DNA from: Leucoraja erinacea
Lineage: Eukaryota
Length of the DNA stretch: 64,000 nt
Assembly: GCF_028641065.1 (NCBI RefSeq)
Contig: NW_026576090.1
Coordinates: 62,001 to 126,000 of the forward strand
Direction of reading: 5' to 3'
Notes under the pieces: generated by a model
Databases searched by the model: none
Seen by the model: the letters and a program-made list of their open reading frames with translations, nothing else
Told to the model about the DNA's origin: nothing
Translations under genes and position numbers: made by a program
Shown: piece by piece, positions 5,777-63,815 of the stretch
Position numbering within the stretch: position 1 is the first letter of the stretch
Layout: the number at the start of each line of letters is the position of its first letter

Positions 5777-5822
5777 ATGGGGGTCGCTGCTTATCTCTGT
5801 CTCCTTCTGTCCTGTCTGACAG
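5777..5822 (+). CDS. IgW: IgW heavy chain leader exon
   Basis: MGVAAYLCLLLSCLT-G|GTGGGT; hydrophobic signal peptide with a phase-1 donor. Confidence 0.93.
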
Positions 5823-5924
5823 GTGGGTGTCGCCCCCACTCGGGGCCGGGCTGCTTCTCGGACACCCTTTGACCCTCTGCCTCTCCAACTGTTTATTAAA
5901 CTTGTTTTTCTCTTTTATTGGCAG

Positions 5925-6219
5925 GCGTTCGATCTGCGATCGTGCTGAATCAGACCCCGACCGTGGTGGCAAAGCCCGGAGGGTCCCTCACACTGACCTG
6001 TGCAACCAGCGGGTTCAACCTCAGCATCACCCCCATGCACTGGGTGAAACAGGTCTCCGGGAAAGGGCTGGACTGGGTAGGAAGGTCGTATAAAGGTGAC
6101 AAAAAATACGGTCCTGCCTTCAGCGGCCGATTCGAAGTTTCCATGGACAGCAGCAACGTCTATCTCCAAATGAACGACCTGAGACTGAACGACACGGCCA
6201 CCTATTACTGTGCGAGACA
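5925..6219 (+). CDS. IgW: IgW VH segment
   Basis: Acceptor TTTTATTGGCAG, then (G)VRSAIVLNQTP..SLTLTCATSGFNLSITPMHWVKQVSGKGLDWVG..RFEVS..YLQMNDLRLNDTATYYCAR. Both Cys and the conserved Trp are intact; open frame. Confidence 0.97.
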
Positions 6220-6258
6220 CACAGTGAGAGGAAGCGGGGCCGGGCCGGTACAACAACC
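6220..6258 (+). other. V 3' recombination signal (23-RSS)
   Basis: CACAGTG 6220-6226, 23-nt spacer, ACAACAACC 6250-6258. Confidence 0.95.
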
Positions 6259-6455
6259 CAGGGGAGAGAGAGCCTGCCCTCAGCTCGGAGCCAAGCGCCG
6301 TGGGTGGAACTGGAGTCACGGGTCGATGAATCCCGGTGTCCGTCTCTGAGACACGGTCAATAGTCGGGCGAGAAGGAACCTCTGTACCTTGGGCTTCAAG
6401 TTGACAGTCGGACGTGCGGAGTGACTGGGCTCGGAGACAGTATGAGAGGATGGGG

Positions 6456-6534
6456 GGTTATTGTACATCGGTGAATCACAGTGACTATATGGGTGGCACA
6501 GTGTGAGAGATGTGACTTCCTCCATACAAAAACC
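6456..6534 (+). other. D1 segment (6484-6496, ACTATATGGGTGG) with 5' 12-RSS and 3' 22-RSS
   Basis: GGTTATTGT(6456-6464)-12 nt-CACAGTG(6477-6483); D; CACAGTG(6497-6503)-22 nt-ACAAAAACC(6526-6534). All three reading frames are open. Confidence 0.95.
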
Positions 6535-6860
6535 TGCCGCAACCAAACGCTTTAAATCGCGTCTCTGGACGCTGCCGCTGCCTTTCCCCCGGGACGCGTG
6601 GATATAAACCAGACCCCGAGTGCATCATCTAGCACAGGGAACAAGATCCACTGAAGATGTGGGAATGCAAGCAGCGAGGAGCCGCTGTGGGTAGAGGCAC
6701 GGCGACAGTCCCGATCGGGGTATCTCCTGTCCACTACAGGGCTGCAATGGCCGAGACTGGACGCTGCTGTGTGGGACACACGGACACAGATGGATGGGGC
6801 TTTAATTGAGCCGCTGCCCACTCTGGCCAGCGTTGGATTTCGGGCTGGATGTGGTAGCGC

Positions 6861-6888
6861 AGTTTGTGAGCGGCGGTGAATCACCGTG
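6861..6888 (+). other. 12-RSS directly upstream of the J coding sequence
   Basis: AGTTTGTGA(6861-6869)-12 nt GCGGCGGTGAAT-CACCGTG(6882-6888). The spacer shares CGGTGAAT with the D1 5' spacer. No nonamer at the 22/23 positions. Confidence 0.8.
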
Positions 6889-6931
6889 TATGACTACTGG
6901 GGTGCAGGAACCTCGCTGACAGTGACTTCAG
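6889..6931 (+). CDS. IgW: IgW JH (probably germline-joined D2-J)
   Basis: YDYWGAGTSLTVTS-G|GTAAGA; WGxG motif and strong donor. Confidence 0.95.
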
Positions 6932-7149
6932 GTAAGACCAATTCCTCAATTCCATTTTACCCAGTTGTGTTTTATTAATTTATGGGTTTTGCGAATTCTG
7001 TAATTCTGAACTCGGTGAGATATTTGGAACAATTGCACGGATTTCCCAGAGACAGCGGGTTAGAGTTAGAATCTACCCAGCAACAGTACATTTCCCACTG
7101 CGTTGAACTGCCCCACAGGCTGTTCTTTCCCTGAGTCTCGCCATCATCT

Positions 7150-11920: not shown

Positions 11921-11926
11921 TATAGT

Positions 11927-13300: not shown

Positions 13301-13746
13301 CTATTTACCTGTGACAACACTTCCTGGGATCTGTGTACCTGTACTCCAAGATCCCTTAGTTGTACAACACTCCCCAGGCCCCAGCATTGAGGAAGGTCCA
13401 CAACAGGCCAGATCCAGCACCATTTAGCCCGGTGGTTGTGGATATGGTCCATCTGGCACCGTACCGTGTGTTTCCTGACCTGGGACACATCACCCACAGT
13501 ACAGGCCGGTTTGTCCCTCTGGTTGGCAGAGGTTGCCTCCACAGTGGCCGGTGTGAGATCAGCATTTCACTGCTTGGTCATGCACGGTGTGAAAGGGATT
13601 TGGAAATAAACCATTTCTCTGCTCTGCCTGGCCTTCTCTCAGCCTGAATCACCTGCATTTACTCAGCAATCTGCATGAACCTGTTACAAGGCGCTGGTAA
13701 TAATCCATTTACTACAGAACCAACTGTTAATTTATTTACATTTCAG

Positions 13747-14055
13747 AGGATGAGGCCTTGCCTTCAGTCCATATGACCTCTTCCTGCAACACAGAATCTG
13801 AGCAAGAGATCAGCATCCTCTGTCTGGTCAAAGACTACCAGCCTGAGATCATCAGTCAGACATGGTCCACCAGCAGTGGGGACATCACCACTGGAATCAC
13901 AAAGTACCCACCAGTGTTGGGACAAAACAACAAGTACACAATGAGCAGCTTGCTGCGAGTCCCTGTGGCAGCTTGGAACAGGAAAACCGTCTACTACTGC
14001 AAGGCAGGATACAAGCCGGCCAACATGGTGAAAACGGAGATCCAGAAGCCTCAAG
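13747..14055 (+). CDS. IgW: IgW CH1 exon
   Basis: TTTCAG| EDEALPSVHMTSSCNTE..ILCLVKDYQPE..TW..MSSLLRVP..YYCKAG..QKPQ-G|GTTAG. C1-set domain with an extra N-terminal Cys suited to light-chain linkage. Confidence 0.96.
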
Positions 14056-14382
14056 GTTAGTATGAGATTTTGTTGTCTATTTAAAGCAGACGATAGAACT
14101 GAAGTGGAAGACTTTGTCGAACAATGTAGGAGGAAGTGAATTAATTATGTTGCTCATTCATTCTCCTCCTGTCAGCCAGAGTGCTGCTGCTCAAGGAAAA
14201 AGACAGTGAGAATTTATGTGGAAGGAGATAATGGTGGGGGGGGGATTCACGGAGGAACCATCTCGTCTTGATCTGCCTCCATTCTATCCACTGCTTTGTC
14301 TAATTTCTGCAGCTCTCTACCACCCCAAACACCTCCCTCCAGATCAGCTACTGTGCACACAATGCACAAAGAACCTGGCGCC

Positions 14383-15232
14383 TAAAACCAAGCCCAGTGT
14401 GTTCCACCTCCATAATGCAGAAGCCACAAGAGAACCAAACATCTATCTGAGCAGGACCAAACTGAAGTATGCCCCCACTCCAACCTACCTCGGAGTGACC
14501 CTTGACAGGACCCTATCCTTCAAGGAACATCTCAAAAGAACAGCAGCTAAGGTGAAGTCCAGAAACAATCTCCTCAGTAAGCTTGCTGGCTCAAAGTGGG
14601 GGGCAGCAGCCCCCACACTGCACATTTCAGCACTAGCCCTTGCATTTTCTTCAGCCGAATAGTGTGCCCCTGTTTGGTCCAGGTCATCCCACACACACCA
14701 TGTGGACACTCAACTGAACTCAACAATGAGGATCATCACAGGAACAATCTGCTCAACACCACTCCCCTGGCTCCCTGTCCTATCCAACATAGCCCCTCCA
14801 CACATCCGGCGAGTAGTCCTCACTCAAAGGATGCTCCAAAAGACCAAAAACTCCCCTCACCTGCCAATTCACATGGACATCTTCAACCCACCCACCACCA
14901 GCTGATTTCACCATCCAATCAGCTTGGAAAAAGGATGTACCAAATAAACATCTGGTGTCAGACCCCACCCTACCGGTCCCTGGCACCAATCTCCCAAGGA
15001 AGCAGTGGACAACGCTGAATAGATTCAGGACTGGACATGGCCCCTGCTTGGCCAGCCTTCACAAATGGGGCAGCAGTCCAACCCCACGGTGTGCTTGTGG
15101 AGAGCAGCAAACAATGCAACACATCATTGAAGCATGCCCTCAACAAAGACTCAAAGGAGGACTTGTCACCCTTCATACAGCAGATCAAGAGGCAACTGCT
15201 TGGCTAAAGGACTTTGCATTCGCTAAATAACT
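14383..15232 (+). mobile_element. Vingi/Ingi-like (I-group) LINE 3' fragment
   Basis: YLGVTLDRTLSFKEHL..SRNNLLSKLAGSKWGA..AE*CAPVWSRSSH..TPLPWLPVLSNIAPP; RKQWTTLNRFRTGHG..CACGEQQTMQHIIEACP (zinc knuckle). Confidence 0.7.
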
Positions 15233-16169
15233 GTGCAGAGAGCCACACCTATTGTGCCCGTGCACAGTGTGGAGATTTAAACCTTCCTCACTCTTCCTGC
15301 ACTTTCCTCTCAACCCTGCAGCTGACCCCTCACCAAGTGAAATCCAGTCTCCTTGTGGAAATGACATGAATCTGCTTCCACTCACACTTTTAACCACTGC
15401 GTTCCAGTTCTGATCAAATCATTGCTGCCACATAACAAAATAAGTTTCTCTTGTCCATCTGACCTCCTTTCCCATTGAACTTAAAGTTGTGTACGAAGGA
15501 ACTGCAGATGCTGGTTTAAAGCGAAGATAGACGGCTGGAGTAACTCAGCGGGTCAGACAGCATCTCTGGAGAAAAGGAGTAGGTGACGTTTCGGGATGAG
15601 ACCTTTCTTCAGACTGAGAGTCGGTGAAAGGGAATAGAGAGATATAGATGGTGATATAGAGAGATATAGAACTAATGAACTAAAGATATGCAAAAAAGTA
15701 ATGCTGATAAAGGAAACTGGCCATTGTTAGCTGTGGGCTAGATTAAAACGAGTTACAGACAACGTAGAGGTGATGGCAACTTAAAGTTGTGATTCCCAAA
15801 CCTCCTGCCAGTGGAAACAGTTGTCACATCTGTTCCTGCTCACTGGAACTGGTGATGGCCATGCTGTTCCTGTGTCTGCTCCAGCACACACTGAGATCAC
15901 GGATGGTCTGTACGCCACTTACCCACCTGCACCCTTACCACTGCAGAGTGGACCACACTGCTGGGGAGGCCTGGGTTCTAACCCAGCCTCCCAATCCCAG
16001 CTCTGACCAGCATCTGACTGTGGGACCCACCATATCAACACATCACCGGCATTTCACCAGCATTGTGGGGAGGGCAGATACTGGGGCTCTTGTCCCAGAT
16101 GTTAGGAGAGTGGAATCCTACACTGTGGCTGAAGGAATCATGTAATAACAGGTATTAAATATGTTACAG

Positions 16170-16469
16170 CTCCACAGCTCATCCCCCTTGTTCCATCCGC
16201 GGAGGTTCTCCACAATCAAACAACTGCTGCCCTGGGCTGCATGATATCCGGATTCTTTCCTAACAATGTTAAAGTTTCCTGGAAAAAATCTGGACTTAAT
16301 CAAGCGGGCGTCGTTCTCCCGTCCACTCCGGGAACTAACGGTAGATTTGAAACAGTTGCTTACCTGCGGTTGCGTGTGGAGGAATGGACCAACAAACAGG
16401 AATATACTTGTGAAGTGACTCATGCACCTTCCGGCTTCAGCGACAGGATCAACATGAGATATCAAGAGG
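16170..16469 (+). CDS. IgW: IgW CH2 exon
   Basis: TTACAG| APQLIPLVPS..LGCMISGFFPNNVKVSWKK..EEWTNKQEYTCEVTHAPSG..YQE-G|GTGAGT. Confidence 0.96.
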
Positions 16470-17076
16470 GTGAGTGGTGTCTGTTAATTTACTTACAGTA
16501 TTAAACAAACTTACTGACATTTCCACTAAATTCCTGTCCCTGAGATCAGTCCTGTTGAGCAATGTATTATCTTCAGATTTGGCTTTTTTGCAATTTAAAC
16601 CAATGCTTTCCATCAGTAATTCTAACTCGTTCTACAGGACATGTAGAGAGGAAGGTCACCAGTGTGTTTACTCTCACTCCTCTAGTCTAGTTGCCTGTGT
16701 GTGCAGTGGTAAGAAAAATGGGACAGTGAAAAAACCACGGGTCCCATCCTATCTGGAGAAAATCTCACTTCCCTTCTCACTGTCTTCTTTGTGTTAGTTT
16801 CTCCAAATCCATCTTTTTCCACTGTTTCCTGAGAGTCTGTTCTGTAGATTTTCCTTTCATTGACATGTCGGTGCCCTGGATTATTTTTGAACTCATCTCC
16901 ACCATCTTTAAAGTGTTGTCTGATCCTGGACAAAGTGAAGCAGTTTATCATGGTCGGCATAATCTCATGCTGATGAATACTGAGGACACAGACTGGGAAT
17001 ATGTGGATCTCCAGTTTCCTCAACACAGGTGGTGAAAATCTCTTCACATTTAAACCAATGAATCTTCCATTTCCAG

Positions 17077-17204
17077 GTGGAGAATGTCCCGGCTGTTCGA
17101 AGTGTCTGCCAAAGTTCATCTACCAGAATAATGTCAATGTGACATTCTCAGATGGTTCTACCCAGCAGTATCATTGTTGGGCAGGAAAGTGTGAAATAAA
17201 GTAA
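17077..17204 (+). CDS. IgW: IgW short-form (IgX-type) cysteine-rich secretory tail exon
   Basis: TTCCAG| GGECPGCSKCLPKFIYQNNVNVTFSDGSTQQYHCWAGKCEIK*; phase 1, five Cys. AATAAA at 17195-17200 and 17498-17503. Confidence 0.9.
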
Positions 17205-19571: not shown

Positions 19572-19627
19572 TTAGTAACAGATGAGTCTCAACTAAAATT
19601 CTGAACTTCTCCATTTCTGATCCACAG

Positions 19628-19930
19628 AATTGTCCGTCTTCATTCAAAATCCTGGCATGAAAGAGATTTGGATCAACAAGACTGCTACGCTGGTGTGTTC
19701 AGTGATCTGTAGTGATCTGAGCCAGGTCCATCTCACCTGGAAGGTGGGAGGAAAGGAGAGAAGTGAAGGAGTTGTGACCCGTACACCGAGCCATGAAGGC
19801 ACCCGAAACGCAATGATCAGTGAACTCCGGACCAGCGTGGAGGAGTGGACCAGCGGGGTGGAGTTTGTGTGCTTCGCCCAACGATCTCCATCATCCTCAC
19901 CAGTGTCAGCGCGGACCAACCATAACAAAG
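19628..19930 (+). CDS. IgW: IgW CH3 exon
   Basis: CCACAG| ELSVFIQNPGMKEIWINKTATLVC..LTWKVGG..EEWTSGVEFVCFAQ..NHNK-G|GTGGGC. Confidence 0.95.
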
Positions 19931-20473
19931 GTGGGCAACAGATCAGTGATTAAATGGCCGTGACAGAGAGAGAGAGAGGGTACAGAGAGGATTTACAAGC
20001 ATGTTGCCAGGGCTAGAGAGCTATAAGGAGAGGTTGAGTGGGCTGGCACTCTATTCCTTGGAGCGTAGGAGGATGAGGGAATATCTTATTGAGGTGTATA
20101 AAATCATGAGAGAAATAGATTGGATAGATGCACAGAGTAGGTGAATTGAGGACCAGAGGACATAGGTTTAAGGTGAAGGGGAAAAGATTGAATAGGAATC
20201 TGAGGGGTAACTTTTCCACGCAAAGGGCGGTGGATGTATGAAACGAGCTGCCAGAGGGGGTAGTTGAGGCAGGGACTATCCTAACATTAAAAAAACAGAC
20301 AGGTACATGGATAAGACAGGTTTGGAGGGATATGGACCAAACACGGCAGGTGAGACTAGTGTAACTGGGACATGTTGGCCGGGGTGGGCAAGTTGGGCTG
20401 GAGGGTCTGTTTCCACACTGTATCACTCTATGACTCTATGATAGAGTTTAACATTTATTTTCCTCTGTTCCAG

Positions 20474-20791: not shown

Positions 20792-20919
20792 GTAGGCTCC
20801 TGGGATTCACTCCATTCTCCACATTGTAAACTGTGCCACCCATGGGCAGCACTGTAACACTGTGTAGTCCTGTTGTGGGCTTGTCAGTGAGTCTGGCCAC
20901 AGAAATAATTGTATCTTTT

Positions 20920-27879: not shown

Positions 27880-27926
27880 GTGGGCGAGAGATACGGCAAT
27901 GATACGGCCAACATTAGTTACCATGA

Positions 27927-46697: not shown

Positions 46698-46703
46698 TTT
46701 ATT
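46698..46703 (-). terminator. Probable SDR39U1 polyadenylation signal
   Basis: TTTATT on + (AATAAA on -), ~500 nt past the stop codon. Confidence 0.5.
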
Positions 46704-48704: not shown

Positions 48705-48742
<38 letters not shown>

Positions 48743-49575: not shown

Positions 49576-49728
49576 CTGCACGGACCACCACCTGCCTCAC
49601 GAGCCGACCTATTCCCTCGGGCAGTCGGGCCGCTGACTCCCAGTCACCCACCAACCGCGAGAAGAAGTCAAAGTCACCGCCAACACTCCCCTCGTGGTAC
49701 TCCTCCCGCAGGCTGGGCCGGTAGTAGC
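49576..49728 (-). CDS. SDR39U1: SDR39U1 exon 5
   Basis: YYRPSLREEYHEGSVGGDFDFFSRLVGDWESAARLP..RQVVVRAG; canonical AG/GT boundaries. Confidence 0.93.
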
Positions 49729-49730
49729 CT

Positions 49731-51010
49731 GGGGATGGGGGAGAGAGGGGGGGGGGAGTGAAATAAGGGGGGAGGAGAGAAAGGAAGAGGTAGAGAAAGG
49801 GGGGGTAGGAGGAGGGGGAGGGGGGAGAGAGGGGGAGGGGAGAGATGGGGAGGGGGATGGGAGAGGAGGGAGGGGGAGAGGGGGGGGAGGGGAGAGAACA
49901 GGGGGGAGGAGGGAGAGAGATGTGGAGGGGAGAGAGAGGGGGAAGGAGAGATGGGGTGGAGGGGAGAGCAGGGGAGGAGAGAGATGGGAGGGAGAGGGCA
50001 GGGGAGGAGGAGAGGGGGGAGGGGATAGATGGGGAGCGGAGAGCAGGAGAGGGGGGAGGGGAGAGCAGGGGAGGAGAGGAGAGAGGGGGGAGGGGGATAG
50101 ATGGGGAGGGGAGAGAAGGAGAGGAGGAGAGAGGGGGGGAGAGGAGAGCAGGGGAGGAGAGAGATGAGGGGGGGGAGAGGGGGAGGGGAGGGAGGGGAGA
50201 GATGGGGAGGGGAGAACGGGGAGAGAGAGGGAGGGGAGAGAGAGGGGAGGAGAGGGAGGGGGAGAGGGGGGAGAGGGAGGGGAGGGGAGAGAGACAGGGG
50301 AGGAGAGGGGGGAGGGAGAGGGGGAGGGGGGGAGGGAGAGCAGGGGAGGAGGAGGAAGGTGGAGGGGAGAGAGGGGAGGGAGGAGAGGGAAGAGGGGAGA
50401 GAGGGGGAGGAGGAGGGGAGGGAGGAGAGAGGAGAGAGGGGAGGGAGGGAGAGGACAGGGAGAGGAGAGGGGGGGGAGGGGAGGCAGGGGAGGAGAGAGA
50501 GGGGAGGGAAGAGGGGGAGGAGAGGGGGAGGGGAGAGATGGGGAGGGGAGAACAGGGGGAGAGAGAGATGGGGGAGAGGGGGGGATAGGGGAGAGGAGGA
50601 GGAGGAGGAGGAGGGGGGAGGGGAGAGAGGGGGGGGGAGAGAGAACGGGAGGAGAGAGAGGAGGGGAGGGGAGAGAGGGGAGGGGAGAGAGAGCAGGAGA
50701 GGAGAGGGGGGAGGGGAGAGATGGGGAGGGGGGAGAGCAGGGGAGGAGGGAGGGGGGAGGGGAGAGATGGGGAGGGGAGAGCAGGGGAGGAGAGAGGGGG
50801 AGGGGAGAGAGAGGAGGGGAGGAGAGGCAGGGGAGGAGAGGAGGAGAGGGGAGAGATTGAGGGAGCGAGGGGGGGAGGGGAGAGATGGGGAGGGGAGAGA
50901 TGGGGAGGGGGAGAGAGGGGAGGAGAGAGAGGGGAGGAGAGAGGGGGGAGGGAGAGATGGGGAGGGGAGAGAGGGGGAGGAGAGAGGGAGGAGGGGAGAG
51001 AGGGAAAAGA
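49731..51010. repeat. ~1.3 kb polypurine (G/A) low-complexity tract
   Basis: Almost exclusively G and A on the + strand. Confidence 0.95.
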
Positions 51011-51199
51011 ACACAGTGAATCACCCACTATTTCTAGCAGCACCCAGTCATGTGGGGAGTGGTGGGGATGAGGGTGGGGGGGATGGGGTGGAGTTAACGC
51101 CCATGCCAGTGAGCCCCACCCAGGCGCAGGGGTGGGTGAGGGGAATGTGGGGGGGGGGGGGGGAGGGGAGTAGGGTGGTGGTGGGGGTCAGTATCTCAC

Positions 51200-51321
51200 C
51201 CACGCCGGTTAGCAGCACCCAGCTGCGGGGGGGGTGGGGGCAGAGAGCGATGGCCTTGCTCAGGGTCCTCGTCGTCTCCACTCGGCTCGACACCACCTCC
51301 TGCTGGAAGGAGCGGCTCCAC
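51200..51321 (-). CDS. SDR39U1: SDR39U1 exon 4
   Basis: WSRSFQQEVVSSRVETTRTLSKAIALCPHPPRSWVLLTGV-G. Confidence 0.93.
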
Positions 51322-51605
51322 CTGTGGGGAGAGGAGGCACTGAATCCCCCTCCCACCACCAGCGTCTGCCTCCCCCTCCTCACCCTCCCTTCCCTCTCCC
51401 CGCACCACCCTCTCCTCTCTCACTGTCTCCAACCCGTCCCTTCCTCCGTCCCCTCCCACCCTGATATCCTCCCCATCCCTTCCCCCTCCTCTCTCCCTCC
51501 TCTCCCCCCTCTCTCCCATCTCTCTCCCCCCTTTCCCAACTAACTCTATCTCCCCCATCCCTCTCCCCCCTCCCCTCTCTCTCCCCCTTCCCCTCTCTCA
51601 CTGAC

Positions 51606-51688
51606 CTCCGCAGTGGGTTGAGGACATTGGCTCCAGCCACATTCACCACGGCATCACAGGGGGGCAGGCCACGGGAGGCCACGTGTGT
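51606..51688 (-). CDS. SDR39U1: SDR39U1 exon 3
   Basis: THVASRGLPPCDAVVNVAGANVLNPLR-R. Confidence 0.93.
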
Positions 51689-51984
51689 CTGTAATACAGG
51701 GAATACAGGTCAGGAACACGGGTCAGATTGAACACTGGTCGGGGACACGGGTCAAGAACACGGACGGAGACACGGGTCGAGGACGGGTCAGGAACACGAG
51801 GTCGGGGGGGTCGGGGACACGGGTCAGGAACACGGACGGAGGGGGTCAGGGGTCGGGAACAGGGGTAGGGGACACGATTCAGGAACACGGGTCGCAGTCA
51901 GAGGGACGGGGGGGGAGAGGGGTAGGGGACAGATTGAACACGGGTCAGGGTCAGAGGGACAGGGGTGAGAGGGCATGGACTCAC

Positions 51985-52088
51985 CCAGGTGACCCCGGCC
52001 CCCGGTCTCCGGGAGACGAACTCCACCTCGTGACCTTTGCTCCTCAGGAGGCGGCTAAGGGCGGAGCCAACGAAGCCGGAGCCTCCGC
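51985..52088 (-). CDS. SDR39U1: SDR39U1 exon 2
   Basis: GGSGFVGSALSRLLRSKGHEVEFVSRRPGAGVTW; Rossmann GxxGxxG motif. Confidence 0.93.
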
Positions 52089-53498
52089 CTGCCCCAGAGA
52101 AACACAGCAGTCAGTGGCCCGACCCCGTGACCCCTGACCCCTCACCCCCATGACCCCTCACCCAGGACCCCTCAACCCGGGAAGCAGCCCTACCGTGACC
52201 ACTCACCCCCATGACTTGACACAACGACCTATGACCTCTGACCTGGGAAGCAGCCCGACCCTGTGATCTCTCACCCGACGAGCAGCCCAACCCCGCAACC
52301 TGTTGCCCCCAACCCCATGACGGATCGACCTGTGACCCCCGACCCGGGTAGCAAAAAGACACGTTGACATGTGAACCCTCAACCAAGCGAACAGCCTGAC
52401 ACGTTCACCCCTGACCCAAAGGAGAAAAAGGACATTTATTATCACATACACCAGTTGGTGTAGTGAAATTTGATTTGCCAAAGCAGCACACGAATAATGA
52501 TAAGACACAACATTAAAGAATTTAACAACATAAAAACATCCCCCCACAATGGTTCCCACTGTGGGGGAAGGCAGCAAAGTCCAGTCCCATCCCCTGATGG
52601 CATCCCTGCGCTGCGCCGCCGCCGAAGCTGTAGTCCCGGCCGGTCCAGACAGGAAAGGCCGCTCCAGTCTCGATGGTAGGCCGCGAGGAGGGAGGCCAAG
52701 AAGCAGCTCAGAGGGAAGCAGCCTCTACGATCAGGTAGTGACTAGGAAATAAAGTTTCCCCTTTCCCCTTCCCCCTCCCCCCACATAAAAGACTAGAAAA
52801 CCACCCAAAATAAACACTTTAACTCACTAAAAATAAAAAAAATGGGTGAAAGGACTAACAGCTGCAGGCGGGGCAGCCATACTCGACGGCGCCCCTGGGG
52901 AGGAACCTGACACTTCCTTCTGCAGTTGTACAGGGCCCTAGTGAGACCACACCTGGAGTATTGTGTGCAGTTTTGGTCCCCTAATTTGAGGAAGGACATT
53001 CTTGCTATTGAGGGAGCTCAGCATAGGTTCACCAGGTTAATTCCCGGGATGGCGGGACTGTCATATGCTGAGTGAATGGAGCGGCTGGGCTTGTACACTC
53101 TGGAGTTTAGAAGGATGAGAGGGTATCTCATTGAAACATATACGATTGTTAAGGGATTGGACACGCTAGAGGCAGGAAACATGTTCCCGATGTTGGGGGA
53201 GTCCAGAACCAGGGGCCACAGTTTAAGAATAAGGGGTCGGCCATTTGGAACGGAGACGAGGAAACACTTTTTCTCACGGAGAGTTGTGAGTCTGTGAAAT
53301 TCTCTGCCTCAGAGGGCGATGGAGGCCGGTTCTCTGGATGCTTTCAAGAGAGAGCTAGATAGGGCTCTTAAAAATAGCGGAGTCAGGGGATATGGGGAGA
53401 AGGCAGGAACGGGGTACTGATTGGGGATGATCAGCCATGATCACATTGAATGGCGGTGCTGGCTCGAGGGGCCGAGTGGTCTCTACTCCTGCACCTAC

Positions 53499-53514
53499 CG
53501 ATCAGAACCTTCAT
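53499..53514 (-). CDS. SDR39U1: SDR39U1 exon 1 coding part
   Basis: ATG AAG GTT CTG ATC G|GTAGGT = MKVLI-G; compare the human start MRVLVG. Confidence 0.85.
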
Positions 53515-54065: not shown

Positions 54066-54140
54066 ATGGCGGAGAGGGGGAGAGCCGCGGAGAGGAGAGG
54101 AGGAGGAGAAGGAGAGCGGAGCGCGGAGGAGAGGCGGGGA
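54066..54140 (+). CDS. TTC5: TTC5 exon 1 (probable)
   Basis: GAAGATGGCG start context; MAERGRAAERR..EERRG|GTGAGG; phase 0 matches exon 2. Low sequence conservation. Confidence 0.6.
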
Positions 54141-57100
54141 GTGAGGGGAGAGGAGAGAGAGATTAAAGTAATGAAAGAAAGAAAGAGAGAGAGAGGGAGG
54201 GAGAGAGAGAGGGAAGGAGATGATACGAGAGGGGAGAAGGACATGCTGGAGAGGGAGAGGAGGGGGAGGTTGGAGAGATGAGGGGGATGTACGTAAGTAA
54301 GTTTTATTTGTATAGCACGTTTAAATCAACTCGCGTTGAAACCAAAGTGCTTTACATAGAATAAATAATTAAGTTTCCGTTCATCCATAGAAAAAAGGAT
54401 GGAGAGAAGGAGATGATGGGGAGGGGGAGGGCAGGTTGGGGGGAGTGGGCAGGAAGGGGAGAGGGTAGGGGACTGGAGAGAGGAGGAGGAGGGGGATGGA
54501 GATGAAGGAGGAGAGGGCGGGGAAGGGGGAGGGGGAGGAAAGTTTCATTGTCATCTGTCCCGAAACAGAACAATGGAAACTCTCACTTGCGGCAGCAACG
54601 ACAGATGGAGAAACACACGGGGAGGAAACAGGCCCTTCGGCCCAACTTGCCCACACCGGCCAACATGTCCCCATCTACACTAGCCCCACCTGCCCGCACT
54701 TGGCCCATAATCCCTCCAAACCTGTCCCATCCATGTACCATTTTAAATGTTGTTACAGCACTTGCTTGTCCTCCGGCAGCTTGTTCCATACACCCACCAC
54801 CATCTGTGTGGAAATGTTACACCTCAGGTTCCTATTAAATCTCCTCCCCCCCCCATCTTAAACCTATGTCCTCTGATACCTCAAGAGATTCCGTGCTTTA
54901 CCAGATCAATATCAATACCCAATGAATGGCAGAGTAGACATGTTGGCTGAATTGCGGTGCAGGCTCGAAGGGCCGAATGGCCTACTCCTGCACCTAATTT
55001 CTATGTTTCTATGAATGGCCTAATTCTGCTCCTATCACCTATGACCAATCCCTCTCATGATTACTATACACATCTATAAGATCAACCCTCATCCTCCTGC
55101 CCTCCAAGACATGGAGACCCAGCCTACTGAACCTCTCCCTATAGATCAGGCCCTTGAGTCCTGGCAACATTTTTCTTTATACCCTCAGCATCTTCTCTGT
55201 ACCCTTTCCAGCTTGACAACATCTTACCTATAATATGGTAACTCAAACCAAACACAATACTCTAAATGCGGCCTCACCAACGTCTTATACAACTGCAGCA
55301 TGGCCCCCCAACTTCTATACTCAATACTCTGACTGATGAAGGCCAATGTGCTAAAAGCCTTGTTGACCACCTTATCTACCTGCGACTCAACCTTCAAGGA
55401 ACCATGCGCCTGTACTCCTAGATCCCTCTGCTCCACAACACTACCCGGAGGCCGACCATTCGCTGTGTAGGTCCTGCCCTTGTCCCAAAATGCAATACAT
55501 TTCTCTGTATTAAATTCCATCAAGCATTCACCTGCCCACATGGCCAATCGATCAAGATCCTGCTGCAATCGTTCACAACCACCTCCATTATCACCCAATT
55601 TTTTTTTTTATCATTTGCAAACTTGCGAATCTTACAGTGTATGTTCTCATCCAAATCCCCAGAGGCACACCACTAGTCACAGGTCTCCAGTCCAAGACGC
55701 AACCTTCCACCGTCACCCTCCGCTTCTTCCCATGAAGCCAATAAGCGAGTTCGGTATTCCGACTGCGCATGCCCAGGTCATAGGTCACTTGCGATAATCA
55801 TTCTTGGCAGCTGTGCAGGTCTGCGTTTCGTCCGGGGTCAGGGTCCGGATCTCCGGCGCTGTTGAGTTGCTGCTGGGCCACCCCTGTCCCCTCCCGGGTG
55901 TCCTGTCCCTGTCCGGGGAGGCTGGAGGCCCTGGGCTTGCAGCCAGCGCAGGAGGGAGGCGCTGGCACCGGCTCGGCTTTGGCTCCCGTTCCCCGGCGGG
56001 CTGGGGGGAGTCGGCTGCGACTCTCTCCTTCAGTTGTCGGTTGGCTGCCTTGGTGTGCCCAGGGGAGGGCCATTGGTGCTTGCACACACGGGCATTGGAG
56101 GGAGGCGGTCAGGCATCCGAGAAGGGTCTTGACCGAAACGTCACTCCCGTTCCCGGCGGGCCAGGGGATGCGTCTGTCCCGACTCTTGCTGCAGCGTTCT
56201 GTGGCTTGTCGGTTGGCCCCTGGTTGCTTGCAGGCTGGGTGGGGGCAGGGGCCATTGGTTGGGTTGGCGCACGCTGGCTGTGCACCTGCGGCCGGCGAAA
56301 CTCTGGGTCAGGCATCCCTTGGGGGGGGGGGGGGGGACCCGGGGGGTGGTAAAACCTCGCTTATTCCCATTTCTCCGGGGATGCTGCCTGGGATTATCCC
56401 TAATGAGTTGCTGCAGCGCAATCTCCTGTCCCCTTTGGCCCTCCGTTTGTTAAGGCTCCTGGTATGATCGCATCTGAATGGAATGGGGCGAATTTCCTTT
56501 ATTGTCATTGGCAGACCTTACGGTTCTGAACGAAAATTGTGGGCCTGCAGTCATACATACAATGATCTGGGTAATAACAACAATAAACACAAATTAACTT
56601 CCACCACAGTGAGTCCTCCAAACACCTCCTCACTGTGGTGGAGGCAAAAATCTTAGGGTTGCAGTCTCTCCCTCTGCGCTGAGGCGATTCCCCACCGGGC
56701 GATGGTATAAACAGTCCCGCAGCTCACCGAACCCCGAGAACGGGCCGGTTCAAACACTGCGGCCCGGGGTGGTCGAAGCCGCCGCACCTCCAGTCCAGCA
56801 CACGCAGCCGCCAGCCCGCGGCTGAACCCAGGACTCTGGACACCGCCGCCAGAACGTCGTCCCAGCCTCTTCATATACATCAATGGGATTGGACAGTGAA
56901 ACAGGTTCCCGATGTTGGGGGAATCCAGAACCAGGGGTCACTGTTTAAGAATAAGGGGTCAGCCATTTAGGACTGAGATGAGGAAAAACATTTTCACCCA
57001 GAGAATTGTGAATCAGTGGAATTCTCTGCCACAGAAGGCAGTGGAGGACAATTCACTAGATGTTTTTAAGAGAGATTTAGCTCTTAGGGCTAACTGAATC

Positions 57101-57621
57101 AATGGATACGGGGAGAAAACTGGAACGGGGTACTGAACGTGGATGATTAGCCGTGATCATATCGAATGGCGGTGCTGGCTTGAAGGGCCAAATGGCCTCC
57201 TCCTGCACCTGTTTACTATGTCCTCCCCCCCACCCCTCACCAACTTCTACAGATGTGCCGTAGAAAGCATTTAATCGGGATACATCATTGCCTGTGTTCG
57301 GAACAGCTCCATCCAAGACCACACGAAGTTGCAGTGAATTGGCCTCCACTGCCTTCTGTAGCAGAGAATTCCACAGATTCACAACTCTCTGGCTGAAGAT
57401 GCTTCTCCTCATCTCCATCCTAAATGGCCGACCCCTTATTCTTAAACTGTGACCCCCCTGGTTCTGGACTTCCCAAACATCGTGGGAAGGGACAGTTTGG
57501 GGGGGGAGGGGACAGTGGGGGTGGGAGAGTGGATCGTGGGAGGGTGGGGACATGGTGTGGGGGTGACAACAGTGTTGTGCGGGGAGCAGTCAAGTTGTGA
57601 TCCCCTCCCCCCCCCCCACAG

Positions 57622-57760
57622 GAGCAGGTGGAGCAGCTCTACACGTTCCGTGACACCTTCTTCCAGACGGAGGGGCCGGGGCCGGGAGGGGCCGAGGAGA
57701 GGCAGCGGCAGCTGCAGGAGAGGCTGCACCAGGTGCTGGAGGCCATCAGCAGCCTGGAGG
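57622..57760 (+). CDS. TTC5: TTC5 exon 2
   Basis: EQVEQLYTFRDTFFQT..LEAISSLE-G; compare human LVDQLYSFRDCYFET. Confidence 0.9.
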
Positions 57761-58913
57761 GTAGGCAGCACCTCACCCCTCCCTCCCTCACTCACTCCCT
57801 TCCCAACGGCAGCATGGATGGTCCTGAGCACCTCACCCCTCCTTCACTGCCTTCGCCCCCTCACTCATTCGCCCCCTCCCCTCACTCCCTCCACTCCCTC
57901 CTTCCCAAACTCCCAACGGCAGATTGGAGGGTAGGCAGCACCTCGCCCCCCATTCCCCTCCTCCCCCCGCCTCCTCTCCCCCCTTCCCTCTCTCCCCTGC
58001 CTGACTCACCCCGTGTGTGTGTGTGCATTAGACAATAGGTGCAGGAGTAGGCCATTCGGCCCTTCGAGCCAGCACCGCCATTCAATGTGATCATGGCTGA
58101 TCATCCACAATCCGTACCCCGATCCTGCCTTCTCCCCATATCCCCTGACTTCACTATCTTTAAGAGCCCTATCTAGCTCTCTCTTGAAAGCATCCAGAGA
58201 ACCAGCCTCCACCGCCCTCTGAGGCAGAGAATTCCACAGACTCACCACTCTGTGAGAAAAAGTGTTTCTTCGTCTCCGTTCTAAATGGCTTACCCCTTAT
58301 TCTTAAACTGTGTGGCCCCTGGTTCTGGACTCCCCCAACATCGGGAACATGTTTCCCGCCTCTAGCATGTGCAAACCCTTAATAATCTTATGTTTCAATA
58401 AGATCCCCTCTCATCCTTCTAAATTACAGCGTATACAAGCCCAGCTGCTCCATTCTATCAACATACGACAATCCCGCCATCCCTGGAATTAATCTGGTGA
58501 ACTTGCGCTGCATTCCCTCAATAGCAAGAATGTCCTTCCTCAAATATGGAGACCAAAACTGCACACAATACTCCAGGTATGGTCTCACTAGGGCCCTGTA
58601 CAACTGCAGAAGGACATATTTGCTCCTATACTCAACATGCCATTAGCTTTCTTCACTACCTGCTGTACCTGCATGCTTACTTTCAGTGACTGGTGAACAA
58701 GGACCCCCCAGATCCCGTTGAACTTCCCCTTTTCCCAACCTGACGCTGTTCAGATAATAATCTGCCTTCCGGTTTTTGCCACCAAAGTGGGTAACGTGAT
58801 TGGGGATGATCAGCCATGGTCACATTGAATGGGGGTGCTGGCTCGAGGTGTCTACTCCTGCATGATCTATGGTCGAATGTCTATAATCTGCCATCTGTTT
58901 GGTGCCACCCCAG

Positions 58914-59125
58914 GGCGGAGCGGGCACAAAGCCAGCGTGCTGCTGTTGAGGGGCAAGGCGTTGAACGTGCTGCCGGAGGGGAGCAGTGAGGCGGAGTCCG
59001 CCCTGTCCCGGGCGGTCAAGCTGCGGCCGGAGCTGCTGGAGGCCTGGAACCAGCTGGGCGAGGTCTACTGGAAACGTGGCGAGCTGGAGGCTGCACGCAC
59101 CTGCTTCACCGGGGCCCTGACCCAC
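58914..59125 (+). CDS. TTC5: TTC5 exon 3
   Basis: [49 protein letters not shown] (TPR repeats). Confidence 0.95.
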
Positions 59126-60041
59126 GTAAGGAGGGGCCGGGTGGGGGGGGGGGGGGGGTGAAACACGGTGGGGGGGGGGGGGAGGGAGGTGCACTGGAAG
59201 AACAGGGACAATAGACAATAGCAGGAGTAGGCCATTCGGCCCTTCGAGCCAGCACCGCCATTCATAGAAACATAGAAATTAGGTGCAGGAGTAGGCCATT
59301 CGGCCCTTCGAGCCTGCACCACCATTCAATATGATCATGGCTGATCATCCAACTCAGTATCCCGCACCTGCCTTCTCTCCACACCCCCTGATCCCCTTAG
59401 CCACAAGGGCCACATCTAACTCCCTCTTAAATATAGCAATGTGATCATGGCTGATCATCCCCAATCAGTACCCCGTTCCTGCCTTCTCCCCATATCCCCT
59501 GACTATCTTCAAATGCCCTATCTAGCTCTCTAGCTCTCTCTTGAAAGTATCCAGAGAACCGGCCTCCACCGCCCTCTGAGGCAGAGAATTCCACAGTCTC
59601 ACAACTCTCTGTGAGAAAAAGTGTTTCCTCGTCTCCGTTCTAAATGGCCGACCCCTTATTCTTAGACTGTGGCCCCTGGTTCTGGACTCCCCCAACATCG
59701 GGAACATGTTTCCGCCTCACTGCTCCCCTCCAGCAGCAGGTTCAACACCTTGCCCCTCAACAGCAGCACTCTGGCCTCAGTGGAGGCCGGTTCTCTGGAT
59801 ACTTTCAAGAGAGAGCTAGATAGGGCTTTTGAAGATAGTCAGGGGATATGGGGAGAAGGCAGGAACGGGGTACTGATTGGGGATGATCAGCCATGATCAC
59901 ATTGAATGGCGGTGCTGGCTCGAAGGGCCGAGTGGCCTCTACTCCTGCACCTATTGTCTATTGAACCCGTCCATGGTGTACGTGAGGGTGTGAGGTGTGA
60001 GGGTGTGTGTGTCAGTGTGTGGCCTGCTCCCCCCCCCCCAG

Positions 60042-60189
60042 TGCAAGAACAAGCAGTCTCTGCGGAACCTGTCCATGGTGCTGCGGCAGGTGCAGGGAAC
60101 GGCGCAGGAACGAGCCGCCAACATCATGCGCAGCGTGGAGCAGGCCCGCACCGCCGTGGAGATGGACGTCACCGACGGCAACTCCTGGT
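60042..60189 (+). CDS. TTC5: TTC5 exon 4
   Basis: [28 protein letters not shown]. Confidence 0.95.
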
Positions 60190-60515
60190 GTGAGTGGGGG
60201 GGGGGGGGGGGAATGGGGGAGGGGGGAAGTGTGGGGGGAGGGGGGATGCAGGGGGTGGGGGGAGGGGGGCTGCATGGAGTGTGTGGGGGGGGATGTGGGG
60301 GAGGGGGGGGGGTGTGTGGGGCATGGGGGAGGGGGAGTGTGTGGGGAGGGGGGTGCATGAAGATAGGGGGAGATGTTCCAGTCTGAGTGGGGGGGAAATA
60401 TAGGTGAAGGGGGTGTGAGGGCGGTTTGTGTGAGTGGGGGGGGGGGAACTTTGGGGGGTGGGGGGGATTCCCGGGAGGGGTGAGGGGGTCTCACTGACGG
60501 TTCCTCTCCCTACAG

Positions 60516-60607
60516 ACGTGCTGGGCAATGCCTACCTGTCGCTGTTCTTCGTGTCGGGGCAAAGTGATCGCGTCAGTCAGCAGGCGCTGGGAGCGTATAC
60601 ACAGGCC
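60516..60607 (+). CDS. TTC5: TTC5 exon 5
   Basis: YVLGNAYLSLFFVSGQSDRVSQQALGAYTQA. Confidence 0.95.
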
Positions 60608-60905
60608 GTGAGTCCCCCACCCCCACACCTCCGTCTCTCTGCCTCCCCCCCCCCCCCCACACTCTCCCCTCACTCACTCTCCCCCCCCACACTCTCCCCT
60701 CACCTCTCTCCCCCCCTCTCACACACTCTCCCCCTCACACTCTCTCCTCCCCACACTCTCCCCCCCCACACTCTCTCCCCCACACCTCTCCCCCACTCAC
60801 CCCCCCACTCTCTCCCCCCTCACTCTCCTCCCCCCCACTCCCTCAACTCTTACTCTGCCCTCTCTCCGCCCCCCACTCACTCTCTCTCTCCCACTCTTCC
60901 CCCAG

Positions 60906-60965
60906 GAGAAGGTTGATGCATCATCCGTCAACAAACCCCGACCTGCACCTCAAAACCGATCGACC
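60906..60965 (+). CDS. TTC5: TTC5 exon 6 (compensating +1/+2 A insertions)
   Basis: EKVDASSVN..; the expected NPDLHLNR reads in a shifted frame. Confidence 0.85.
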
Positions 60966-61310
60966 GTGAGTGTCTGTGGGAGGGGGGAGACAGAGACAGT
61001 GTGGGGGGGGGGGGGGGGCATGGAAGGGGAGTGGACCTCAAGAGTTGGAGTGAAAGGGGACGGGGGCTCAGGGAGGGGGGGGGGGAGTTGGAGTGAAGGG
61101 GGAGGGGGGGGCTTTCAGGGAGGGGGAGGAGTTGGAGTGGGGGGGTCAGGGAAGGTGAGGGGTGGGATAGTTGGAGTTAAGGGGAGGGGGGTTTCAGGGA
61201 GGGGGAGGGGTGGGAGTGGGGGGTCAGGGAAGGTGAGGGGTGGGAGAGGTGGAGTGAAGGGGTAGGGGGTGGGGGGGGTAGGGGCCGTCTGACCCGTTGC
61301 CCACCCACAG

Positions 61311-61457
61311 CTACACCGGTACGAGGAGCGCTACCAGGCGGCACTGGCCGGGCTGGCGAGGGCAGCGGCGCTGGACCCCGCCTCCACCGAGCCGGCACTC
61401 CGCGAACAACAACTCCTCACCTACCTGAGCCGAGTGTCCACCCTCGTACAGCAACGG
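61311..61457 (+). CDS. TTC5: TTC5 exon 7
   Basis: LHRYEERYQAALAGLARAAALDPASTEPALREQQLLTYLSRVSTLVQQR. Confidence 0.95.
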
Positions 61458-61674
61458 GTGAGGGGGGCACTGGGGGCGGGGGGAGAGTGGGAGAGGGAGG
61501 GAGAGACTGAGGGGGAGGAGGGAAAGAGAGGGGAGAGAGACTGAGGGGGAGGGGGAGGGATGTTGGGTGTGGGGAGAGTAGGGGGTGGGGGAGAGAGTGA
61601 GGGGGAAAGAGAGTGTGAGGGAGGGAGAGAGAGAATTGGGGGGGAGAGAGAGGGATAGGGGGGTAGAAACAGGA

Positions 61675-62296
61675 GAAAATAGGTGCAGGAGTAGGCCATT
61701 CGGCCCTGCACCGCCATTCAATATGATCATGGCTGATCATCCAACTCAGTATCCTGTTCCTGCCTTCTCTCCATACCCCCTGATCCCCTTAGTCACAAGG
61801 GCCACATCTAACTCCCTCTTAAATATAGCCAATCAACTGGCCTCAACTACCTTCTGTGGCAGAGAATTCCAGAGATTCACCACTCTCTGTGTGAAAAATG
61901 TTTTTCTCATCTCGGTCCTAAAAGATTTCCCCCTTATCCTTAAACTGTGGCCCCTTGTTCTGGACTTCCCCAACATCGGGAACAATCTTCCTGCATCTAG
62001 CCTGTCCAACCCTCTTAAGAATTTTGTAAGTTTCTATAAGATCCCCCCTCAATCTTCTAAATTCTAGCGAGTACAAGCCGAGTCTATCCAGTCTTTCTTC
62101 ATATGAAAGTCCTGCCATCCCAGGAATCAGTCTGGTGAACCTTCTCTGTACTCCCTCTATGGCAAGAATGTCTTTCCTCAGATTAGGAGACCAAAAACTG
62201 TACGCAATACTCCAGGGTGTGGTCTCACCAAGACCCTGTACAACTGCAGTAGAACCTCCCTGCTCCTATACTCAAATCATTTTGCTATGAATGCTA
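61675..62296 (-). mobile_element. CR1 LINE 3' fragment
   Basis: ORF 61918-62118 [32 protein letters not shown]. Confidence 0.88.
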
Positions 62297-62663
62297 ATGT
62301 CGGATGGGGAGAGGAGAGGGTGGGAGCTGGAGGGAGTGACGGAGCAGAGAGGCTAATGGAGGGAGGGGGTGGAGGGGCAGAGAGAGGGAGCTGGAGGGAC
62401 AGGGTGGGAGGAACACAGGCTGAGAGAGATGGGGTCTAGGGCAGGGATGATGGGGGGTTAGTGGGACCACTGGGATGGGGCTGAACAAGGAGTGGGGAGG
62501 AGAGAGTGCGCGGGGGAGGGACAAGAAGCGAGGGAGGGGGCAGTGGAGGAGGGATGGTGGGCTTGGAGAAGGACCAGGGATGGGGGGGAGAGGGCTGAAA
62601 CTGTTCCCCATCCCCCATTTTTGTGACCACACTGACCCCCCCCGTGTGTGTGTCCTCTGGCAG

Positions 62664-62878
62664 GGGCAGCTGAAGAAGAAGCGGCTGACCGCACTGATGT
62701 CCAGCCTCCGTGGCCGCGAGCTCCACAACCATCAGGACCGACTGTACAACGCCCCCAGCGGGCCCCCCACCCGCCTCGCCCTGCACCCCCTCTCCTCCCT
62801 CACCCCCGGCAACAACCCCGGCACTGCCGTCCTTGGCAAAGTCGTCTTCAGCCTCACCACCGAGGAGAAGGTGCCCTT
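62664..62878 (+). CDS. TTC5: TTC5 exon 8
   Basis: GQLKKKRL..PLSSLTPGNNPGTAVLGKVVFSLTTEEKVP (OB-fold domain). Confidence 0.95.
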
Positions 62879-63670
62879 GTACGTACCGGGTAGGGTACCG
62901 GTGGGGGGGAGGGGAGGGTAGGGAGGGGGGAGAGGGTTAGGGACTGGGGGAGGGGGTTAGAGAGTGGGAGGTGGGGGTGGGGGGGGGGGAGTTGGAATAA
63001 CTGGGGGGGGGGGGGGGGCAGTGTGAGGTAGGACTGCCTGGGTTTGGGGGGGGAGTTGAGGAGGATTTCTTCACCAGAGGGTGGTGAATCTGTGGGATTC
63101 GTTGCCACAGACGGCAGTGGAGGCCACAAGTCGGTGGATATATTTAAGGCAGAGATCAATTCTTGATTAGTGCGGGGGAGTCAGCGGGTTATAGGGTAGA
63201 AGGTGCAGCAGGAGAATGGGGTTGGGGGGGGGGGGGGGCAGGGAGGTTCTACTAGATCAGCCATGGATTGAAGTGGCGCAGATTTTGCCATAGGGGAGTA
63301 CCGAATGGTGTCTGATTAACGGAGATGTGTGGGGGGAGGTTTTTTTCCAAACAGAGGGTGGTGGGGCCAGAGGACGAGGGTGGTGGGGGGGGAATGATTT
63401 AAAACGATGGTGGAGTGTTTGGGAGAGGGTGACAGATAGGCGCGTGGATATGCCTGGAATGGAGGGATATGGATCTACTTCGTTGGCAGAGGGGAGTCAG
63501 GGATAGCACGGACATAGTGGGCCGAAGGGTCTGTTCCTGGGCTGTATTATGCTCTGGAGGTGAGGGAGTGGATGTGCAGACTGAGAATGTGGAGCTGGAC
63601 AGGGTGTATGGGGGGGGTCTGGCATCAGTGTACTGGGCCAGTGGGTCTGATCCATTCCGTTGTATGATAG

Positions 63671-63815
63671 CACCGTGGGCCTGCTGGACGGGGAGGGCAC
63701 GTGTGTGGCCGTGACAGTGTACAACATGGCGGAGAGCTGGGGGGTGCTGATCGGAGACACCATCGCCATCCCGAGGCCAATCTACACCCACCACAGCGTG
63801 GAGCACAAGGACAAG
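63671..63815 (+). CDS. TTC5: TTC5 exon 9 (gene continues beyond the window)
   Basis: TVGLLDGEGTCVAVTVYNMAESWGVLIGDTIAIPRP..HKDK|GTGAG. Confidence 0.95.

Follow-up and report, generated by a model that had tools for sequence, protein, structure and literature searches.

The locus described here raises the question of whether an IgW cluster of the skate Leucoraja erinacea lies in the neighbourhood of the TCR alpha/delta genes, and whether its J segment, which is preceded by a 12-RSS, could receive TCR segments. The cluster was found in a stretch of 64,000 nucleotides (the window) of an unplaced contig of 219 kb, C909, where it is followed in order by SDR39U1, TTC5, CCNB1IP1, IPO4, a ZFHX2-like gene and THTPA. 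We take human TTC5 (14q11.2) and SDR39U1 (14q12) to lie on either side of TRA/TRD; CCNB1IP1, IPO4, ZFHX2 and THTPA presumably have human locations of the 14q11/12 type, and the ZFHX2-like gene is named tentatively, from its Pfam homeodomain/zinc fingers. An IgH cluster among human-14q11/12-type genes, as in an antigen-receptor complex (AgRC), is thus found on C909. We consider it probable, with good confidence, that C909 carries an IgW minicluster with a germline-joined D2-J, adjoining the SDR39U1-TTC5-CCNB1IP1-IPO4-ZFHX2-like-THTPA block and likely sharing a chromosome arm with TCR alpha/delta, within the published elasmobranch complex.

Table 1. Position and description of the features annotated in the window
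Feature	Position	Strand	Description
IgW leader exon	5777..5822	+	ATG 5777; matches skate IgW leaders; GT donor
IgW V exon	5925..6219	+	open frame; 23-RSS after it
D1	6484..6496	+	5' 12-RSS, 3' 22-RSS (RSS scan)
D2-J, germline-joined	6889..6931	+	3 bases of D2 + trimmed J, YDYWGAGTSLTVTS; behind D2 5' 12-RSS
CH1 + CH2	13746..16470, ends approximate	+	tblastn vs skate IgW proteins, 71-87%
Cys-rich secretory tail, short IgW form	17078..17204	+	86-88% to Amblyraja and Raja short tails
CH3, CH4, CH5, CH6 with long-form secretory tail	19626..25105, ends approximate	+	
Two extra CH exons (CH3/CH4-like)	27585..28610	+	
TM1	33184..33324	+	86% to Rhinoraja P0160
Duplicon	35921..47640		IgW TM2, 3' flank, and exons 7 and 6 of SDR39U1 plus the intron between them; further copies in the genome
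TM2 (VQQ stop)	36458..36469	+	AG acceptor and stop in sequence
SDR39U1	47204..53514	-	7 exons; stop 47206-47204, ATG 53514
TTC5	54066..63815	+	exons 1-9; last exon past window end; predicted ATG 54066

The V exon is followed by an RSS with its heptamer at 6220-6226 (CACAGTG-23-ACAACAACC), and the elements V-23, 12-D1-22 and 12-D2J all lie inside 5925-6931, which is the minicluster layout of one V, D segments and one J within about 2 kb with complementary RSSs. The V is 71% identical to Raja eglanteria IgX/W and 78-79% to Rhinoraja IgW models, and it groups with the V of another contig, C944, and the Raja IgX V (support 97/93) rather than with IgM or TCR V. The constant region is of the IgW type, with six or more CH exons, a long secretory tail, a Cys-rich short tail after CH2 and downstream TM exons. 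The known skate IgX/IgW cluster (Raja eglanteria AAA75596; Rhinoraja and Amblyraja IgW models) is alike in leader, V, CH1-CH6, both tails, the extra CH pair and the TM exons, but in C909 D2 comes already joined to J, V and D1 being free, and an in-frame TAG interrupts the first of the extra CH exons at 27795-27797 in the present assembly. In B cells, V (23-RSS) would join D1 (12) and D1 (22) would then join the pre-joined D2-J (12), or alternatively V would join D2-J directly; splicing after rearrangement may give short-secreted, long-secreted and membrane IgW.

The initial annotation had placed the IgW TM2 about 10.7 kb from the SDR39U1 stop codon with TTC5 next, and this was borne out, the gap being 10,734 bp; the sole N run of the window is at 1441-1799, so that the IgW-SDR39U1 interval has none. 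SDR39U1 exon 4 matches human SDR39U1 4b4o (E 1.7e-11) and has only this one match in the genome, while exon 6 has an apparent frameshift within a G run at about 47600, which is likely a consensus error; one paralogous copy of the exon stays in frame across the run. TTC5 is oriented head-to-head with SDR39U1; its exon 3 matches TTC5 structures (E 1e-26), TTC5_OB has a single match in the genome (window 63672-63818), and an exon at about 60905-60965 has an apparent frameshift in an A run. A search of the genome for SPT16 gave no match; MT-A70 matches were seen on C20 and C1.

Both sides of the IgW-SDR39U1 junction are present in 8 of the 15 paralogous places examined, and five of the 15 (C12, C368, C1386, C1462 and C768) repeat the order from IgW tail to SDR39U1. 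Across the blocks compared (IgW side, spacer and exons) substitution identity is 88-99%, and it does not change abruptly at the junction. Because of this repeated order, the lack of a step and the single-copy SDR39U1 exon 4, the join is very likely genuine as judged from sequence comparison, and an earlier worry about misassembly at 37-47 kb has largely been removed by the paralogous copies. Of the 21 DNA runs listed, 20 hold a piece of this stretch, always in short contigs (shares 0.29-0.52), and they are given no weight here.

These copies belong to a duplicon, and several of them have in common a new 47640-to-35921 joint. A DNA-level duplication would have taken the IgW tail plus the end of SDR39U1, and one derivative with the new joint may later have spread to other contigs and chromosomes. 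No branch is well supported in a tree of the TM2 copies, and the tree gives no direction for the duplication. As to a mobile-element cause, no shared termini were found in the flanks viewed; DIRS-like matches occur at 11/42 copy-side loci versus 6/97 others (p 0.003), with queries taken from two of those loci and the loci not independent, so that this enrichment is only a hint.

The central idea, linkage of IgW to TCR alpha/delta, is already in print, and the C909 cluster is a skate instance of a known complex. IgW-TCR alpha/delta-PSMB5 linkage has been published for four elasmobranchs, namely two sharks, a catshark and a stingray (PMC12227049 Fig. 1, Table S1; Flajnik et al. 2025), with PSMB5 as marker and IgW miniclusters among human-chr14-type genes as on C909; the IgW-PSMB5 distance is 0.06-1.4 Mb in 4/4 species, and the distance from IgW to the TCR alpha constant gene is 0.3-1.6 Mb in the three species having both on one scaffold. 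The same paper proposes proximity as the explanation of trans-rearrangement of IgM/W V to TCR delta; TTC5, SDR39U1 and DAD1 are absent from its text, and TTC5 and SDR39U1 from its two supplements. Unlike in that AgRC, TCR genes do not share the scaffold of C909. When the placement of TRAC/TRDC and DAD1 was checked, TRAC/TRDC were found on C875 and DAD1 on C4, a large chromosome; PSMB5 is on C344. Since C909, C875 and C344 are separate unplaced contigs, linkage to the TCR genes cannot be shown in the present assembly.

The placement of IgW in a 14q11-like antigen-receptor neighbourhood, as initially annotated, is likely right in view of its 14q11-type neighbours and of the other elasmobranchs (PMC12227049), but TRA/TRD is on another contig. 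The argument from flanking human orthologues is of no use at fine scale: on C909, genes that in humans lie on opposite sides of TRA/TRD are grouped within about 170 kb, with no TCR exon among them or elsewhere on the contig, and the position of DAD1 indicates that human 14q11 markers are not all kept with TRA/TRD. Chromosome-level linkage of the C909 IgW to TCR alpha/delta is nonetheless likely. IgW and CCNB1IP1 records lie on contigs of equal size in Rhinoraja (49,537,575 bp) and Hemitrygon (62,778,992 bp), that is, in two of the three species listing both, Amblyraja being uninformative with CCNB1IP1 unplaced; such matching is indirect. The RefSeq accessions of IgW and CCNB1IP1 are 23 numbers apart in Hemitrygon and 287 in Rhinoraja, a weak observation. 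The epaulette shark CCNB1IP1 scaffold, of 5,136,515 bp, is compatible with the IgW-PSMB5-TCR scaffold of PMC12227049, whose last listed gene ends at 5,118,634.

Two other arrangements were weighed. C909 could be a chimera: if a transposed piece of SDR39U1 sat beside an IgW tail, the assembler might have fused that tail to the true SDR39U1 across exons 6-7, which both have; the junction is repeat-rich, similar copies are numerous in the genome, and the homopolymer frameshifts suggest low consensus quality. This is very improbable, because the substitution difference between C909 and the copies is 2-13% on either side and shows no jump at the junction, two of the copies (C768 and C8) continue into SDR39U1 intron 5, no N gap is present, and the two other batoids have IgW and CCNB1IP1 on contigs of equal size. 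Somewhat less remote, though still unlikely, is that the cluster and the 14q11-like block are true neighbours parted from TCR alpha/delta in skates, on another chromosome or by tens of Mb, with no cis donation. Besides the position of DAD1, this would accord with the other IgW cluster on C10, whose neighbours are RA-domain, FAM110-like and TADA1-like genes and not 14q11 genes, with the statement of a review (PMC5192425), citing Raja, that clusters may be spread over many chromosomes, and with the axolotl TRA-TRD, which has lost the usual flanks (PMC12529555). Against it, IgW is near both PSMB5 and TCR alpha/delta in the species that PMC12227049 Table S1 covers, the stingray included, and the epaulette CCNB1IP1 scaffold has a fitting size. 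The Ig clusters of Leucoraja erinacea do move, as the C10 cluster and the IgNAR, IgM, TCR beta and TCR gamma constants on other chromosomes indicate. A crude ORF scan of the C944 flanks (about 145 kb) found only repeats, and a supposed link of SMG7/RGL1 with teleost TRA/TRD was not found in the literature.

The 12-RSS before J is not J's own. A 12-bp-spacer RSS does precede J, with its heptamer at 6882-6888 and a nonamer 3 mismatches off consensus, but it belongs to D2: alignment with the C944 and C10 clusters shows that both paralogues keep a separate D2 (12/12) and a 23-RSS J, that the C909 signal is the D2 5' RSS, identical in both, and that C909 lacks about 400 bp comprising the D2 3' 12-RSS, spacer DNA and the J 23-RSS. 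The coding segments are joined and the inner RSS pair is gone relative to the unjoined paralogues, as in germline-joined IgH; by this comparison the signal is what a germline D2-J join left behind. A TCR-type J was rejected, J's own RSS having a 23 spacer in C944 and C10. RAG acting in the germ line probably produced the join. Among the public contigs listed for the V-J region, those of two other organisms break at the join, and none of those listed for the two runs of organism A reaches across it. In the germline-joined IgH clusters of cartilaginous fish (VD-J, VD-DJ, VDJ), trimmed coding ends are likewise joined, with loss of both inner RSSs and the intervening DNA. The accessible parts of PMC5192425 and PMC4279169 do not name a V-D-DJ form whose V is free; it may be in older skate papers.

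The TCR delta D segments on C875 bear 12/23 RSSs, with which the 23-RSS of the C909 V is compatible, and in thymocytes this V could occasionally join a TCR delta D. C875 also has its own Ig-like V segments and a second TCR delta-like unit. In the nurse shark, IgH V segments reportedly trans-rearrange to TCR delta, and Ig-like V segments are reported to be associated with TCR delta (Criscitiello 2010, Deiss 2019); the skate resembles that system in a 23-RSS V fitting a 12-RSS TCR delta D and in the Ig-like V segments of C875. A protein search with the C909 V matched 9 longer proteins, none named TCR, and a TCR V search for longer proteins gave no match at E 1e-15. That the 12-RSS J acts as a TCR-type acceptor, yielding TCR-V/IgW-constant chains at a meaningful rate, is highly doubtful. 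In formal terms D2-J could pair in a single step with TCR V (23-RSS on C1211, C924 and C875) and with the TCR delta D 3' 23-RSS, but its signal is an ordinary D2 5' RSS with a weak nonamer, V and D1 of the cluster itself are no more than 700 bp away, rearrangement is reported to be almost exclusively intra-cluster (PMC4279169), and the literature, as far as accessible, describes IgH V to TCR delta only and not the reverse. Because ordinary clusters also offer 12-RSS D segments, all that D2-J does is to save one of the two steps of a hypothetical TCR-V-to-IgW join. We would hardly expect that it makes the C909 IgW a one-step acceptor near TRA/TRD from which skate lymphocytes build antibodies that combine a TCR alpha/delta variable domain with an IgW constant region.

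With the C909 cluster, the IgH-TCR alpha/delta complex already in print gains a skate example, and the six single-copy genes beside the cluster can serve as anchors when the fragmented antigen-receptor region of skate assemblies is scaffolded. Details so far undescribed are the donor of the dispersed IgW-tail/SDR39U1 duplicon and the second TCR delta-like unit. The SDR39U1 tag points to the place of the C909 cluster as the probable origin of a family of orphan IgW tails found on several chromosomes; speculatively, such tails could inflate hybridisation-based counts and add to the older picture of dispersed skate IgX clusters. The pre-joined D2-J is a unique sequence that allows a cheap test of reciprocal TCR-Ig chimeras, and TCR-V/IgW antibodies, if true, would be the known IgH-V/TCR delta chimeras in reverse.

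The initial annotation placed the IgW cluster directly beside SDR39U1 and then TTC5, and this arrangement was confirmed by our analysis of the whole of C909, a 218,795-bp unplaced contig of the 2.19-Gb skate genome on which the window spans 62001-126000. The end of the second IgW transmembrane exon (TM2, window 36458-36469) and the SDR39U1 stop codon (47206-47204) lie tail to tail at a distance of 10,734 bp, and no Ig or TCR exons besides the IgW cluster were found on the whole contig. The starts of SDR39U1 and TTC5 are head to head, about 550 bp apart, with a GC-rich gap separating them (window 53,514-54,066); this spacing and the GC-rich stretch suggest a shared promoter. Exon 4 of SDR39U1 is matched once in the genome, as is the OB domain of TTC5, and the CCNB1IP1 exon shows 99% identity to the Amblyraja protein and 98% to that of Rhinoraja. 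One SDR39U1 exon and one TTC5 exon carry homopolymer frameshifts in this assembly, which are likely consensus errors. The IgW cluster itself comprises a leader, a V with an open frame, CH1-CH6, two secretory tails (one short, one long) and two TM exons; it also has an additional CH pair, whose first exon contains a TAG in this assembly.

The IgW cassette is colinear with the IgW clusters of C944 and C10 up to window ~42.7 kb, and past this point the same junction of IgW tail to SDR39U1 is found elsewhere in the genome in diverged DNA copies that retain the intron (the duplicon). Of 15 places chosen among the best matches, 10-40 kb of each being examined, eight contained sequence from the SDR39U1 gene as well as from the TM2 side, and five repeated the C909 order. 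Substitution identity to C909 was 92-97% in TM blocks, 87-99% in spacer blocks and 91-98% in exons 6-7, and these blocks show no step where the junction is crossed. A new joint, leading from SDR39U1 exon 6 back to window 35,921 over a 2-base overlap, is common to six of the 15 places, and the C21 copy is circularly permuted; tandem duplication or a circular intermediate would give both features. Since C909 alone carries a whole SDR39U1 gene, the copies probably stem from this locus, and the adjacency probably predates them; no branch was well supported in a tree of 14 TM2 copies, and the direction of duplication is taken from structure alone. On such sequence comparisons, we consider the IgW-SDR39U1 join very likely to be real.

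Features located in the skate assembly
Contig or chromosome	Coordinates	Strand	Feature
C909			Order: three C2H2 zinc-finger genes, IgW cluster, SDR39U1 (-), TTC5 (+), CCNB1IP1 (-), importin-4 (+), ZFHX2-like homeobox/zinc-finger (-), THTPA (+)
C909	window 35,921-47,640		Likely duplicon source: IgW TM2 and SDR39U1 3' exons
C12 (chromosome)	30.557-30.570 Mb		Duplicon copy, C909 order
C21	5.814-5.816 Mb		Duplicon copy
C8	53.909-53.911 Mb		Duplicon copy
C7	75.187 Mb		Duplicon copy
C6			Duplicon copy, two exon-7 pieces
C368, C1386, C1462, C768			Duplicon copies, C909 order
C1682, C1431, C1540, C1186, C1162			Duplicon copies
C368	26-33 kb		Retrovirus-like integrase and adjacent ORFs, beside a duplicon copy
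C875	222,875-231,060	+	Second TCR delta-like unit, inverted, upstream of TRD locus
C977	89,100-97,100		Twin of second unit
C4	31,874,736-31,877,544		DAD1
C1460	241-245 kb		Three C1 exons, last with short tail; presumably UrIg-like
C1438	255.1 kb		Single C1 exon
C20	15,698,782-15,699,309		Intronless MT-A70 gene
C1482	299.9-300.4 kb		Intronless proteasome beta gene, in two frames

Linkage of IgM, IgW and IgNAR to TCR alpha/delta and PSMB5 has been described in great white, catshark, epaulette shark and stingray, and trans-rearrangement of IgM/W V to TCR delta has been explained by that proximity (PMC12227049); chimeras of IgW V with TCR delta are mentioned again in PMC5192425, and those of IgH V in PMC6795676. 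METTL3, SALL2, DAD1 and ABHD4 are listed as usual TRA-TRD flanks (PMC12529555). TRAC and TRDC, which together with DAD1 had been proposed as markers to be sought on the C909 scaffold, were found elsewhere: a search with the zebra-shark TCR alpha constant region (P0067) located TRAC on the unplaced contig C875 and a near-copy of it on C121. In the ~106 kb covered of its 237 kb, C875 also carries an Ig-like V, two D segments with 12/23 RSS, J segments with 12-RSS, J alpha and a TRDC-like exon with TM. Unplaced C1211 and C924 hold V arrays of TCR alpha/delta type, and PSMB5 is on unplaced C344. Because these and IgW lie on separate unplaced contigs, the skate assembly neither demonstrates nor contradicts IgW-TCR alpha/delta linkage. 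The human counterparts of the six C909 genes from SDR39U1 to THTPA lie on both sides of TRA/TRD, and since the skate genes adjoin without TCR between them, gene order is shuffled relative to the human flanks; these flanks should not be read literally, as DAD1 lies on C4, a 110-Mb chromosome that also has a TCR gamma-like constant exon. By similarity, the C34 and C4 constants are TCR beta-like and gamma-like, and the C15 gene is IgNAR-like.

Records of IgW and CCNB1IP1 are both on 49,537,575-bp contigs in Rhinoraja and both on 62,778,992-bp contigs in Hemitrygon; CCNB1IP1 is unplaced in Amblyraja and in zebra shark (TCR alpha on a 16.4-Mb contig), and Pristis has only IgW among the records listed. 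The epaulette shark CCNB1IP1 is on a 5,136,515-bp scaffold, which by size alone fits the IgW-PSMB5-TCR scaffold whose last listed gene ends at 5,118,634 (PMC12227049); the 48.9-Mb contig of stingray CCNB1IP1 is compatible, again by size, with chr26 of that paper, where genes are listed up to 32.1 Mb.

The J with a 12-RSS in the window had been proposed as a possible acceptor for TCR V or D segments. A V search, which scores best candidates only and possibly missed others, brought up two further IgW clusters with a V (C944 and C10), and both have 12-D2-12 plus a J with 23-RSS. Alignment with these shows that ~400 bp from D2 to J are missing from the window, whose element consists of D2's 5' 12-RSS, three D2 bases and a trimmed J, joined without base addition; on this alignment, the element is read as a germline D2-J join. 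Germline-joined clusters are known in VD-J, VD-DJ and VDJ forms, and germ-cell RAG activity is held responsible for them (PMC5192425, PMC4279169). Joining within the window cluster continues to obey the 12/23 rule (V23 to D1 or D2-J; D1 22 to D2-J). Because ordinary clusters also present a 12-RSS D to TCR V, a TCR-IgW chimera would not depend on the join, which saves one step only; a special role for the 12-RSS J is not supported. The C909 cluster is likely the most intact of the three, since the C944 V (135,353-135,646) is joined into D1's 3' heptamer, with the signal damaged, and the C10 cluster (60.97-61.10 Mb) has a frameshifted V. At 99-110 kb, C944 carries the extra CH pair four times, the window once. 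A contig of run X15 has a V-D1 joint differing from that of C944, and the C10 cluster, near the chromosome end, neighbours RA-domain (RGL-like), FAM110-like, TADA1-like and RmlD-domain genes.

The second TCR delta-like unit on C875 consists of an Ig-like V (23-RSS), one J (12-RSS), a C1 domain and TM; no D signal was found in the 2 kb separating V and J. Its C1 domain matches a basking-shark TCR delta-like model at 38%; the figure for canonical TRDC is 31%. The literature covered by our search, in which Anderson 1994 and the original nurse-shark studies figured only as citations, gave no earlier description of this unit, no paper connecting TCR or Ig loci with TTC5 or SDR39U1, and nothing on skate IgW/TCR genome organisation. 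The chromosome-level idea that IgW lies in a TCR alpha/delta neighbourhood is likely right and already in print (PMC12227049). The skate adjacency is probably a further instance of a known complex, and both the duplicon of orphan IgW tails and the additional TCR delta-like unit merit separate attention.
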